Positions 1 through 8,328 of a DNA stretch of 8,328 nt are shown here, piece after piece. Origin of the DNA: a plasmid. How positions within the stretch are numbered: position 1 is the first letter of the stretch; every line of letters starts with the position of its first letter. Location: NCBI RefSeq assembly GCF_056712565.1, contig NZ_JBWXXM010000005.1, one strand, 5' to 3'. A program made the translations under genes and the position numbers. The notes beneath the pieces are model-generated. The model was not told the DNA's origin, did not search any database, and saw nothing but the letters and a program-made list of their open reading frames with translations.

Positions 1-486
1 ACCAAGAGGCACACCAACAATAAAACTAAACATTAATGCCACAATTTTTGCCACACCTACATCGACCGCACTTTTCTCCAGCGTGATAAACAAAGGTCGC
101 CAGTTACCAGTTTCTATTGCATTTTTAAAATCAGAACCAACATCATATAGAAAAGATACTCGACTGGTGATTTTAAGCGACTTTGATATCTTCGTTAAAT
201 TCTTAGATAACTCATCATAATTAACAGACTCTAACGCATTAAAAATAGCATCCCGATCAACCTTACTGAATTTCTTATCCAGTACATTCTTATACTTTTC
301 AAATGCTGCCAGAGCTTCATCAACACCTTGAATTTTCTTTCCTTTAGACTTTTCCGCTAAATCCTGAGCAATTTTTGCGTATTTTTCTCCATATTGTTCG
401 GTTATATATTGATAAAATCCAACCATAGTATCAACAGCATCTTTTATCTGGCTCTTTTCAAGAGCATCCTGAGCTTCTTTTAATTT
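1..486 (-). CDS. cka: Pore-forming (channel) domain segment of the colicin gene, open to the window start but out of frame with the upstream part; partial at window edge
   Basis: Reverse-complement translation in the frame whose codons occupy (3,2,1),(6,5,4)... is stop-free from 498 down to 1: [166 protein letters not shown]. This matches the colicin E1/Ia/K/5/10 channel domain as I recall it (not searched). That frame has a stop at 499..501, so it cannot join the upstream ORF without a 1-nt correction. Confidence 0.85.
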
Positions 487-1556
487 CTGCTCTGCCTCTT
501 AACCTCAGCGGCCTTACCATCCCTGAAACTAACAGCATTCTTAAGTTCATTTTCAACTGCGGAGTACTCAGCCTGCTTAGCTTCAAGCTGACGCTGTAGT
601 TTTTTCTGAACGTCACGCCATCCCGGAAATCCGGTGACCTTCACGTCAACACTCTTCTGAGCGTTTTCAAGCTCTCCTGCAACTCTGGAAACAGTAGCTT
701 GCTTACTCTGTACATCACTTTCAGCCTTCGCCAGTTCAGCTTTCGCCTCAGCTAAACGCTTCTCTGCTTCCGCCACCGCCTGTTTCTCTTCATTAAGAGT
801 TTCATGTTCAGCGACCTCTGCATTTTCACGAGCCTTTTCTTCAGCTTCCTTCTGTTTATTCACATCACCAATTTTACTTTGCAATGTATTTTTATAAGAA
901 TTAAGTTTGCTAATATCTGCATCAAGCTGATTTGATTTTTTTTGCAACTCATCAACATCCCTCTCAAGATCAGTGATACCATGATAAGAATGATGCTTGA
1001 ATACTTTTTTCATCTCCTCGATTTTCTTCTGTTTTTCACTAATCTGTGTAGCAATTTTATTCTTCTGCTTTTGTTTTTCATTAATTACATTACCCACCAC
1101 CTTCGAACTCTTATCCATATCACTGACCTGAGCATTCGTTGGTGCAGTATTAACTGAAGCAGTGTTATTGTTGTTATTTCCTGAGCTTTCTGCAAAAAGT
1201 GATGGCATATCACTAATTAAAGAATTAAGAACTCTGGAGACCCCTCCAAATGGATTATCAACCAGAGTTGAATTATCTTCTGTCATAACAATACCATTCA
1301 TCACCGGAAGGCCATCATTATTAATGACAACATCACCCCACGGAGTCAGATATGACTCACCGGTTTTCATCACAGTTGATGTAGAACCAGATGAATTTGA
1401 ATTTCCCTGACCACCATTATTACCATGCCCAGAGCCACCACCCCAGTGAACCCCACTATTACTATTATTATTTCCACCTTGCTGATTCAGATTCGCCCCT
1501 GTTCCCCCCATAGACTCACCAGCAGTTGGTCCATATCCACTTAGTTCTTTAGCCAT
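480..1556 (-). CDS. cka: Colicin, N-terminal translocation and central coiled-coil/receptor-binding part (358 codons), ending at a premature stop caused by a frameshift
   Basis: ORF track 480..1556 (-). Gly/Asn/Ser-rich N-terminus followed by [36 protein letters not shown]...[13 protein letters not shown], which closely resembles my recollection of the colicin A Tol-dependent translocation domain ([38 protein letters not shown]...RVLNSLV). A long K/E/A-rich coiled-coil follows. SD-like AGAGGA lies 7 nt upstream of the ATG (minus strand, + coords 1563..1568). Assignment to colicin K specifically is circumstantial: total length would be about 548 codons if the frameshift were repaired, and the immunity protein is 96 aa. 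Confidence 0.92.
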
Positions 1557-1600: not shown

Positions 1601-1631
1601 CTGTACATATAACCACTGGTTTTATGTACAG
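1601..1631 (-). promoter_or_regulatory. Tandem overlapping LexA boxes (SOS operator) of the colicin promoter
   Basis: Minus-strand sequence CTGTACATAAAACCAGTGGTTATATGTACAG contains two overlapping CTGT-N8-(A/C)CAG motifs, the double SOS box typical of colicin promoters. It lies about 45 bp upstream of the colicin ATG. A candidate -35 TTGACA is at 1659..1664 (minus strand). Confidence 0.85.
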
Positions 1632-1796
1632 TAAAAACCTACTACTCAGCATTGTCCATGTCAAGAGCATGGATTTTCATTTTTGCAATAAGGATCACAC
1701 TATGGGGAGGCAGGCATTGAGAACGTCGAAACAGAACACCGGAGCAAATCAGGATGAGATATAAAACTGTTGGATCATGAAAAAACGGAGAACGAT

Positions 1797-6402: not shown

Positions 6403-6432
6403 AGATTACGCGCAGAAAAAAAGGATCTCAAG
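6403..6432 (-). promoter_or_regulatory. RNAII promoter (-35 TTGAGA, -10 TAATCT on minus strand)
   Basis: Minus-strand sequence cttcTTGAGAtcctttttttctgcgcgTAATCTgctgcctGTAAAC has a 17-nt spacer and matches the pMB1 RNAII promoter as I recall it. Confidence 0.7.
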
Positions 6433-6454
6433 AAGATCCTTTGATCTTTTCTAC

Positions 6455-6459
6455 TGAAC
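6455..6459. repeat. IS2 target-site duplication (TGAAC), right-end copy
   Basis: TGAAC immediately outside the IS2 end at 6460; an identical TGAAC lies at 7791..7795 outside the other end. IS2 is known to make 5-bp duplications. Confidence 0.85.
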
Positions 6460-6500
6460 TGGATTTGCCCCTATATTTCCAGACACCTGTTATCACTTAA
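6460..6500. repeat. IS2 terminal inverted repeat (IRR)
   Basis: Imperfect inverted repeat partner of 7749..7790; shared core CCAGACA...ATATCACTTA. Confidence 0.8.
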
Positions 6501-7376
6501 CCCATTACTGGCTTGCTGCCGTAGATATTCCCGTGGCGAGCGATAACCCAGTGCACTATGCGGATGCCATTCGTTATAATGCTCGAACGCCTCTGCAAGG
6601 TTCTTTGCTGCCGTTAACCCGTCTGGTTTGGGCATGACACTGATGTAGTCACGCTTTATCGTTTTCACGAAGCTCTCTGCTATGCCGTTACTCTCCGGAC
6701 TCCGCACCGCCGTGCTCTTCGGTTCAAGCCCCAACATCCGGGCAAACTGCCGTGTTTCATTAGCCCGGTAGCATGAACCATTATCCGTCAGCCACTCTAC
6801 TGGAGACGCCGGAAGCTCGTTGCCGAAGCGGCGTTCCACCGCTCCCAGCATGACGTCCTGTACTGTTTCACTGTTGAAGCCGCCCGTAGTGACCGCCCAG
6901 TGCAGTGCCTCACGGTCACAGCAGTCCAGCGCGAACGTGACTCGCAGTTTTTCTCCGTTATCACAGCGGAACTCGAACCCGTCAGAGCACCATCGCTGAT
7001 TACTTTCTTTCACAGCCACTCTGCCTGTATGTGCCCGTTTCGATGGCGGTACAGCAGGTTTTCGCTCAAGCAACAGCGCATTCTGGCGCATGATCCGGTA
7101 AACACGTTTGGCATTGATCGCAGGCATACCATCAAGTTCTGCCTGTCTGCGAAGCAGCGCCCATACCCGACGATAACCATACGTGGGCAGCTCTCCGATA
7201 ACATGGTGTATACGGAGAAGCACATCCGTATCATCAGTGTGACGACTGCGGCGGCCATCCATCCAGTCATCGGTTCGTCTGAGAATGACGTGCAACTGCG
7301 CACGCGACACCCGGAGACAACGGCTGACTAAGCTTACTCCCCATCCCCGGGCAATAAGGGCGCGTGCGCTATCCAC
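6471..7376 (-). CDS. insD: IS2 transposase OrfB (InsD), normally expressed as an OrfAB fusion by -1 frameshifting
   Basis: ORF track 6471..7376 (-) 301 aa, (M/V)[33 protein letters not shown]...[12 protein letters not shown]... with a DDE-type integrase core (...[37 protein letters not shown]...). The first codon is GTG and overlaps the end of insC. Confidence 0.95.
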
Positions 7377-7699
7377 TTTTTTGCCCGTCCATATTCAACG
7401 GCTTCTTTGAGGAGTTCATTTTCCATCGTTTTCTTGCCGAGCAGGCGCTGGAGTTCTTTAATCTGCTTCATGGCGGCAGCAAGTTCAGAGGCAGGAACAA
7501 CCTGTTCTCCGGCGGCGACAGCAGTAAGACTTCCTTCCTGGTATTGCTTACGCCAGAGAAATAACTGGCTGGCTGCTACACCATGTTGCCGGGCAACGAG
7601 GGAGACCGTCATCCCTGGTTCAAAGCTCTGCTGAACAATTGCGATCTTTTCCTGTGTGGTACGCCGTCTGCGTTTCTCCGGTCCTAAGACATCAATCAT
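7334..7699 (-). CDS. insC: IS2 OrfA (InsC), helix-turn-helix regulator / N-terminal part of the transposase
   Basis: From ATG at 7699: [58 protein letters not shown]...[26 protein letters not shown]. The 15 extra N-terminal codons in the track ORF 7334..7744 are rejected. Confidence 0.93.
7377..7383 (-). other. IS2 programmed -1 ribosomal frameshift heptamer (A AAA AAG) at the insC/insD overlap
   Basis: Minus-strand sequence ggcA AAA AAG tgg is in the OrfA zero frame. A -1 slip reads AAA AAA GTG GAT AGC = KKVDS..., continuing into InsD. This is a known IS3-family mechanism. Confidence 0.7.
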
Positions 7700-7748
7700 C
7701 TGCTCTCCAATGACTAGTCTAAAAACTAGTATTAAGACTATCACTTAA

Positions 7749-7790
7749 ATAAGTGATATTGGTTGTCTGGAGATTCAGGGGGCCAGTCTA
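7749..7790. repeat. IS2 terminal inverted repeat (IRL)
   Basis: Reverse complement from 7790 reads TAGACTGGCCCCCTGAATCTCCAGACAACCAATATCACTTA... The lysis-gene reading frame terminates inside this repeat at TGA 7775..7777. Confidence 0.8.
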
Positions 7791-7918
7791 TGAACCGCGA
7801 TCCCCGTCAGTTCAGAAGACGAAGATGGTGCAACGGTTCCTCCTTGTACATCACGAATATAGTTTGCTTGACATCCTGACAAGAATAATATTGTAATTAG
7901 AAAAATTATTATTTTCAT
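7775..7918 (-). CDS. ckl: Colicin lysis (bacteriocin release) lipoprotein, with its 3' end altered by the IS2 insertion (47 codons; ends ...GIAV-HRLAP)
   Basis: Not in the ORF track (short). Reverse complement of 7793..7918 translates [42 protein letters not shown], with signal peptide, lipobox L-S-G-C and the [14 protein letters not shown] motif typical of colicin lysis proteins. Reading continues across the TSD into the IS2 IRL (H R L A P, stop TGA at 7775..7777). The displaced native end (Q codon and TAG) lies at 6451..6456 on the other side of IS2. Confidence 0.8.
7791..7795. repeat. IS2 target-site duplication (TGAAC), left-end copy
   Basis: TGAAC directly abutting the IS2 end at 7790; identical to 6455..6459. 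Confidence 0.85.
7868..7897 (+). promoter_or_regulatory. Candidate immunity-gene promoter located inside the lysis-gene coding region
   Basis: TTGACA at 7868..7873, an 18-nt spacer, TGTAAT at 7892..7897, about 50 bp upstream of the immunity ATG at 7948. Confidence 0.4.
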
Positions 7919-7947
7919 ATTTCTTTCCAACAAAAGTAAAAATACTT

Positions 7948-8238
7948 ATGCATTTAAAATACTACCTACATAATTTACCTGAATCACTTATACCATGGAT
8001 TCTTATTTTAATATTTAACGACAATGATAACACTCCTTTGTTATTTATATTTATATCATCAATACATGTATTGCTATATCCATACTCTAAATTAACCATA
8101 TCTAGATATATCAAAGAAAATACAAAGTTAAAAAAAGAACCCTGGTACTTATGCAAGTTATCTGCATTGTTTTATTTATTAATGGCAATCCCAGTAGGAT
8201 TGCCAAGTTTCATATATTACACTCTAAAGAGAAATTAA
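7948..8238 (+). CDS. cki: Pore-forming colicin immunity protein (96 aa, integral inner-membrane protein)
   Basis: ORF track 7948..8238 (+). Very AT-rich and hydrophobic (…[33 protein letters not shown]…[26 protein letters not shown]), consistent with several membrane spans. It is convergent with the colicin gene and sits between colicin and lysis genes on the opposite strand, the canonical arrangement for pore-former immunity genes. Its stop (8236..8238) overlaps the colicin stop (8235..8237). Confidence 0.8.
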
Positions 8239-8328
8239 ATCCCTAACAACTCATTAAGTTTGCTCAACTCATCATCCCCTATGTAAGAAGAAACAATACC
8301 TGTGACAATTGCAATCCCCCAGAAACCA
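8235..8328 (-). CDS. cka: C-terminal tail of the colicin gene (last 29 codons plus stop), continuing from the window start across the circular junction
   Basis: Reverse complement of 8235..8327 translates [30 protein letters not shown]-stop, the end of the hydrophobic hairpin and C-terminus of a pore-forming colicin. The stop TAA is the reverse complement of 8235..8237. Window 8325..8328 (acca) equals window 1..4 (acca), and joining 8324 to 1 gives a continuous ...[15 protein letters not shown]... reading frame. Confidence 0.75.

Follow-up and report, generated by a model that had tools for sequence, protein, structure and literature searches.

A colicin K plasmid with an IS2-marked lysis gene, an intact immunity gene and a one-base toxin gene deletion private to one record

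Identity of the plasmid and layout of the record

The window, by which we mean the whole stretch of DNA that was analyzed (8,328 nt), carries the toxin gene cka, the immunity gene cki and the lysis gene ckl of colicin K, together with a copy of IS2 that abuts the lysis gene (Table 1). The record represents a whole circular plasmid of the pColK type (ColE1-like), and an ordinary one. In a megablast search of the whole record against the PLSDB plasmids, pColK-K235 (NC_006881.1, 8318 nt) showed 99.4 % identity over 100 % of the record, and many plasmids of ~6988 nt, whose annotations include cka, cki and a colicin release lysis protein, showed 99.8-100 % identity over 84 % of it. The remaining 16 %, absent from the ~6988-nt plasmids, is one block of 1331 nt (6460-7790).

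Table 1. Features of the colicin K module and the adjoining IS2 element in the window
Feature	Coordinates	Strand	Basis
cka, 5' part; truncated colicin K ORF, 358 aa (353 native + RQSRN + stop)	480-1556	-	Translation; PF22348 present, PF01024 absent
cka, 3' part, out of frame; pore-forming domain coding sequence, continues at 8235-8324	1-479	-	Alignment
Last cka codons and 4-nt terminal redundancy (8325-8328 = 1-4, ACCA)	8235-8328	-	Alignment
Site of 1-nt deletion, TT versus TTT in relatives; coding AAA to AA, codon 353	499-501	-	Comparison with relatives
cka promoter (TTGACA) and two overlapping LexA (SOS) boxes, unchanged	1601-1664	-	Read from sequence; one box found by pattern search; identical to sibling
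ckl::IS2 fusion ORF, colicin K lysis lipoprotein, 47 aa	7918-7775	-	Translation; PF02402; partly encoded by IS2 left end
cki, colicin K immunity gene, intact, 96 aa	7948-8238	+	PF17500 match; DNA identity to reference
Candidate cki promoter TTGACA-N18-TGTAAT, inside ckl coding region	7868-7897	+	Read by eye from sequence
IS2, 1331 nt; transposase orfA/orfB on minus strand; left inverted repeat abuts ckl	6460-7790	-	97.7 % identity, domains, repeats
Target-site duplication TGAAC, copy 1	6455-6459	.	Single copy in IS2-free L002
Target-site duplication TGAAC, copy 2, within last ckl codons	7791-7795	.	Sequence
Terminator-like hairpin, directly 3' of ckl in IS2-free plasmids	6420-6442	-	Hairpin computed from sequence

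The sequence ACCA at the start of the record is repeated at its end, and occurs as a single copy at this place in three relatives, L002, L003 (CP088446.1) and L004 (the closest sibling, see below). Given the excess of 4 nt at the record junction and the single ACCA in the relatives, the true circle is 8324 nt, written with a terminal redundancy of 4 nt. The toxin gene itself crosses the record ends (start at 1556 on the minus strand, past position 1, end at 8235), and its alignment across them is free of gaps only after removal of 4 nt. An apparent second frameshift in cka at the junction was therefore discarded as an artefact of the redundancy. The repeated ACCA hints at an imprecise circularization of the assembly.

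The plasmid pColK-K235 has the same backbone, the same cka-cki-ckl order, an identical cki and likewise one IS2, with 99.4-99.9 % identity outside that element. Nevertheless, the record is not pColK-K235 itself: the IS2 of the latter lies upstream of cka (868-2198 in NC_006881.1, which corresponds to ~1879-1884 in the window) and the two IS2 copies are only 97.7 % identical, while in pColK-K235 the ckl end is normal and cka is intact. Considering the different site and the limited identity, the two insertions are independent. The IS2-free plasmids of 6988/6989 nt (e.g. CP054461.1 and the backbone of CP088446.1) are 99.9-100 % identical to the record over the non-IS2 backbone, and differ from it in that they lack IS2, have a normal ckl stop followed by the hairpin and the RNA II promoter, and possess an intact cka.

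The immunity gene and its putative promoter

The small protein Cki resides in the inner membrane and blocks incoming colicin K at its pore-forming domain. Its gene is situated between the toxin and the lysis gene, on the opposite strand and convergent with cka (cka ends at 8235 and ckl starts at 7918, both on the minus strand), and the 3' ends of cki and cka overlap by 4 nt. The product matches Pfam family PF17500 over its full length (positions 1-96 of 96, E 9e-57, 190.1 bits at a cut-off of 27), the DNA is identical to that of cki in pColK-K235, L002 and L004, and the gene is annotated 'colicin K immunity protein' in NC_006881.1 and CP054461.1. An earlier note on this DNA, which had put forward the plasmid as that of an immune non-producer, took the immunity ORF and a candidate promoter to be intact, and on both points the comparison bears it out.

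With regard to the promoter, a strict consensus promoter scan reported none for cki, and the candidate that was read by eye is located 51 nt upstream of the cki ATG, with its -35 element 78 nt from the end of IS2. Its position would place the cki promoter inside the ckl coding region, with a predicted transcript start at ~7904-7906. The exact position matters little here, since the region 7796-8328 is identical in every base to the IS2-free pColK plasmids, so that cki with its 150 nt of upstream DNA is the same as in the wild type and a native promoter anywhere within ~150 nt of the start must be unchanged. In this arrangement cki would be transcribed from a promoter of its own, against the direction of the cka-ckl operon, which is under SOS control. 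Being on the opposite strand, it should not depend on the toxin operon, and the predicted immunity would thus be independent of the state of both cka and ckl. For colicin K it has been reported that cki is expressed in most cells and cka in few (PMC2994835).

The IS2 element and the lysis gene

The IS2 copy in the window resembles the element annotated in NC_006881.1 as 'IS3-like element IS2 family transposase' and has no counterpart in the 6988-nt siblings. It shows the characteristics of the IS3 family, i.e. orfA with an HTH_Tnp_1 domain and orfB with an rve domain (the DDE integrase core), imperfect terminal inverted repeats (6468-6499 and 7750-7781), a 5-nt target duplication and a length of ~1.33 kb. 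The insertion point lies 2 nt before the stop codon of ckl, and because of this position residue Q43 of the lysis protein is changed into HRLAP (one residue swapped, four added). The junction between IS2 and ckl reads TTCAGGGGGCCAGTCTATGAACCGCGATCCCCGTC. On its transposition into the last codons of ckl, IS2 duplicated TGAAC and put His-Arg-Leu-Ala-Pro in place of the terminal Gln. It also separated the gene from its usual 3' hairpin, which now lies at a distance of 1.3 kb.

The surroundings of the insertion are crowded. The right end of IS2 is found 28 nt upstream of the -35 element (TTGAGA) of a putative promoter of the replication primer RNA II (6405-6460, minus strand), which we assign as such from general ColE1 knowledge. 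In the IS2-free plasmids the ckl stop codon is only ~20 nt away from this putative -35 element, and the terminator-like hairpin of the operon presumably overlaps it.

The effect on the lysis protein itself is limited. Residues 1-42 are native, and the product matches PF02402 at profile positions 10-48 of 49 (39 of the 49 positions; E 3e-23, 81.8 bits at a cut-off of 27); only the last profile position is unmatched at the carboxy-terminal side, where the native ending ...TGIAVQ is missing. The signal peptide ends in the lipobox LSGC, which conforms to L-x-G-C as read from the translation; signal peptide and lipobox are native, and so is the mature part except for one of its 28 residues. The earlier note, in which the ORF was started at a TTG (7933) upstream of the annotated ATG at 7918, had described the C-terminus as replaced and the gene as modified. 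The replacement is indeed present, and the ORF ends in HRLAP, but with 42 of 43 residues as well as the signal peptide and lipobox native, the term 'modified lysis gene' is too strong.

The allele is not confined to the record. Five NCBI contigs, assigned to E. coli or Salmonella enterica in their annotation, encode exactly the same 47-aa fused protein, which shows that IS2::ckl is real and a marker of a circulating lineage; the IS2-fused lysis protein is thus already in public databases. A record that spans the IS2-ckl junction was not found among the PLSDB plasmids, the complete E. coli genomes or the GTDB representative genomes.

One could argue that the IS2 insertion, rather than the change in cka, is the key lesion. 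The altered C-terminus, or the loss of the 3' hairpin with a lower stability of the mRNA, would then weaken or abolish ckl, and the IS2::ckl lineage would make colicin but show poor release and reduced lysis, so that the insertion would have lowered the cost of production before cka was lost in this record. The wild-type ending ...TGIAVQ, and with it the terminal Gln, does not vary among the 13 full-length sequences listed from the 90 % cluster of Ckl (a fourteenth listed member, P0005, is a 27-aa partial sequence and was left out of the count), ckl is severed from the terminator-like hairpin, and the allele persists in at least five assemblies annotated to two species. The invariance of the Gln was seen within a single 90 % cluster, though, and as such is a weak sign of constraint; moreover, only one of 43 residues is changed and the Pfam match is largely retained. 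In mutational work on the lysis proteins of colicin A and cloacin DF13, C-terminal truncations were reportedly largely tolerated. We therefore regard a decisive role of the IS2 insertion as improbable and the HRLAP variant as probably made and active.

The toxin gene and the missing base

As the earlier note stated, the colicin gene is frameshifted in the record: one base is missing from a short run, where it may be placed anywhere within 499-501, and the reading frame ends at a premature stop at 480 after 358 instead of the 548 amino acids of the reference. Lys353 is still encoded, after which RQSRN and the stop follow. The N-terminal colicin domain (PF22348, aa 71-114) and the central domain are retained in the 358-aa product, and the pore domain (PF01024), which spans aa 364-545 in the 548-aa protein of sibling L004, is missing. 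The loss of one A in codon 353 would thus give a fragment devoid of the pore domain and no active toxin. Since this domain is encoded entirely after the premature stop, the plasmid as written should be unable to make active colicin K.

Two ways in which the lesion could have had a smaller or a larger effect were considered. Slippage during translation or transcription as a means to restore the frame was rejected on inspection, since the site has just AA and no slippery heptamer is present. Strong polarity of the premature stop on the downstream ckl is unlikely as well: the stretch of mRNA that has become untranslated is rich in G and poor in C (C/G 0.48), a poor entry site for Rho, and strong Rho-dependent polarity would accordingly not be predicted.

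Distribution of the deletion among relatives

The closest relative that we recovered is a contig of assembly GCA_023519835.1 (ABGHSQ010000092.1, 8325 nt; L004). Across the circle it differs from the record in a single base, and it shares IS2, the position of the element, the TGAAC duplication and the HRLAP variant. The one difference is the A of cka codon 353, which is present in L004; its colicin K is accordingly complete, with 548 aa and the pore domain. The L004 contig is carried by two samples. Most of the neighboring genes are shared by the four other contigs that encode this fused lysis protein; the full base comparison covered L004.

The wild-type base at 499-501 is likewise present in pColK-K235, L002 and L003, in all of the ~36 near-identical (at least 99 %) cka records from complete E. 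coli genomes, and in the same number from PLSDB. All 33 full-length cka matches in the complete E. coli genomes keep the frame, with lengths of 1647, 1650 or 1653 nt. The 358-aa product was not found among ~15 billion proteins, and a 31-mer that spans the deletion had no match in the metagenome or GTDB collections; the corresponding wild-type 32-mer, used as a control, matched 20 metagenome stretches. With 0 matches versus 20 for the control, the allele was recovered from no second independent sample. The deletion is therefore a singleton among the copies examined, private to this record, and considering that the otherwise base-perfect sibling is intact, the immune non-producer genotype is not a property of the lineage. 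The survey of sibling isolates that the earlier note had suggested thus gave a divided answer: the IS2::ckl allele is shared by the five contigs, but the cka deletion is absent from L004 and from all collections searched.

Some annotations could be mistaken for signs of a more widespread decay. In the NCBI isolate contigs L007, L010, L011 and L013 a 'colicin' of 171 aa is annotated, which starts at the internal Met378, and the DNA encodes an intact 548-aa cka; this quirk of annotation could easily pass for gene decay. The 171-aa entries were consequently rejected as a sign of a generally split cka, the gene being either intact in the DNA or cut by a contig end. The same applies to the PLSDB rows without a feature under cka, which might be taken for pseudogenes: in both rows that were checked the gene runs across the record start, and a third such row (NZ_CP129262.1, with a match at record positions 2-303) probably has the same cause.

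Disrupted toxin genes in gut metagenomes

Other lesions of cka were recovered from gut metagenomes. The clearest case is L021 (ERZ772893 NODE_4667, 8380 nt, 19.7x coverage), in which IS2 resides inside cka, flanked by a 5-nt duplication at nt 752-756, with ckl intact and cki 100 % identical. An IS2 insertion cannot be a base-calling error, and L021 represents an unambiguous natural pColK genotype of the 'immunity without toxin' kind. It is thus like the record in being a pColK plasmid with an inactivated cka and an intact cki, and unlike it in that its lesion is the IS2 inside cka and its ckl is untouched.

The remaining lesions are smaller. In L020 and L022 a common frameshift (A8 to A7) is found at cka nt 621, with cki and ckl kept; in L030 and L018 the G6 run at nt 53 has gained or lost one base; and L034, L035 and L015 have deletions in cka of 2, 19 and 128 nt, respectively. 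In this set of eight contigs, L021 included, cki is intact in six, the exceptions being L035 with an in-frame deletion of 30 nt and L015, which ends inside cki. The lysis gene is intact in seven, as L015 ends before it. Several of these contigs are at ~2x coverage and may contain errors. About a third of the pColK contigs from gut metagenomes (7 of ~20), three of them robust, combine a disrupted cka with an intact cki and ckl, versus a disrupted cka in none of the 33 full-length genes from complete isolate genomes. This difference, if genuine, would mean that culture collections under-sample immune non-producers.

Counting pColK-K235 and the record, at least two independent IS2 insertions have occurred in the pColK backbone, and L021 adds a third.

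A recent mutation or an error in the sequence

The earlier note recognized that its reading hinged on the frameshift being real, and it was right to do so: the genotype rests on one base, which no sibling or database copy lacks. The deletion would be either a very recent loss-of-function mutation in the isolate or an error of sequencing or assembly, two options between which the balance tips slightly to the side of error.

We give an even chance to the reading in which the base was lost in sequencing or assembly, and the plasmid belongs to the IS2::ckl lineage and makes colicin K normally. A single base separates the record from a sibling with an intact cka, the deletion is situated in a short homopolymer, and none of the 33 cka genes from complete genomes has a net frameshift. 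In addition, the 4-nt overlap of the ends is a sign of imprecise circularization and possibly of an unpolished long-read assembly. On the other hand, the record is otherwise free of errors when compared to L004. All 61 homopolymer runs of at least 5 nt, including two of 8 nt, agree between the two, and the only indel in 8.3 kb is the one in the 3-nt run at 499-501, with none in the A8, A7 and G6 runs where long-read errors concentrate. An indel that is restricted to a 3-nt run is not the usual pattern of long-read error.

To the reading in which the frameshift is real we assign a probability that falls just short of even. The host would then be an immune non-producer, which profits from, or is at least protected against, the colicin K of its neighbors without making the toxin. 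The genotype as written lacks the pore domain and retains cki, the agreement with the sibling extends over the long homopolymers mentioned above, and there are natural precedents in L021, L020 and L022, all of which keep cki and ckl. The existence of such loss-of-function alleles, with cki and ckl intact, makes a real mutation plausible here. Against this stand the singleton nature of the deletion, absent from the sibling contig and every database searched, and the condition of the out-of-frame part, which shows no further decay, so that the mutation, if real, must be very recent. Moreover, ckl is essentially intact and the untranslated stretch offers little for Rho, so that the lysis of induced cells would probably not be abolished and the main cost of production would remain.

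Immunity without production

Based on the above, we are fairly confident that the record represents a colicin K plasmid of a circulating sub-lineage, marked by an IS2 at the end of ckl, with an autonomous cki and a private deletion in cka. The further step to an immune non-producer was only partly sustained. As written, the pore domain is gone and cki is intact, but this is not the state of the lineage, given the intact sibling, and the lysis gene is close to native. The term 'cheater' is overstated for the same two reasons, as SOS-induced cells may still lyse and thereby pay the main cost of production.

If the deletion is real, the isolate would be a natural immune non-producer that is one mutation away from a producer, and together with the sibling it would form a clean isogenic pair in which to measure what colicin K production costs and what immunity by itself brings. 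More generally, a frameshift of one base that is seen in one assembly calls for a look at the reads before it is taken for biology. A broader possibility is that pColK plasmids in the gut decay stepwise to an immunity-only state, in which case IS2 would have hit ckl first, in a lineage common to E. coli and Salmonella, after which the frameshift eliminated cka. The share of disrupted cka genes in gut metagenomes, against none in complete isolate genomes, speaks for such a decay, which we nevertheless consider doubtful.

The case is not new in kind: its genes and plasmid family are known already, as are IS2 and the concept of an immune non-producer. For the pneumococcal blp locus (PMC3171984) the loss of production with retention of immunity is discussed as cheating, and the concept is established for other bacteriocins. 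The two cases are alike in this loss and retention, and differ in organism, toxin class and route of export; besides, the blp lesions described there are conserved across many strains, whereas the lesion in the record is a singleton.

Other variation in the module

Besides the lesions, in-frame expansions of an AATAGT repeat occur at cka nt 103 (~1454 in the window), with 6 additional nt in L019, L022 and L031 and 12 in L020 and L033. The repeat is part of the Asn/Ser-rich N-terminal region, and the expansions amount to a length polymorphism of the translocation domain of colicin K. Finally, in the blood isolate plasmid L003 an ISEcp1-blaCTX-M-14 unit (5741-9873 in CP088446.1) is inserted at the first codons of cki, with a 5-nt duplication of TGCAT (7949-7953 in the window). 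The unit parts cki from its native upstream DNA and ckl from cka, and thus constitutes another strike of a mobile element on the same 500-nt module.
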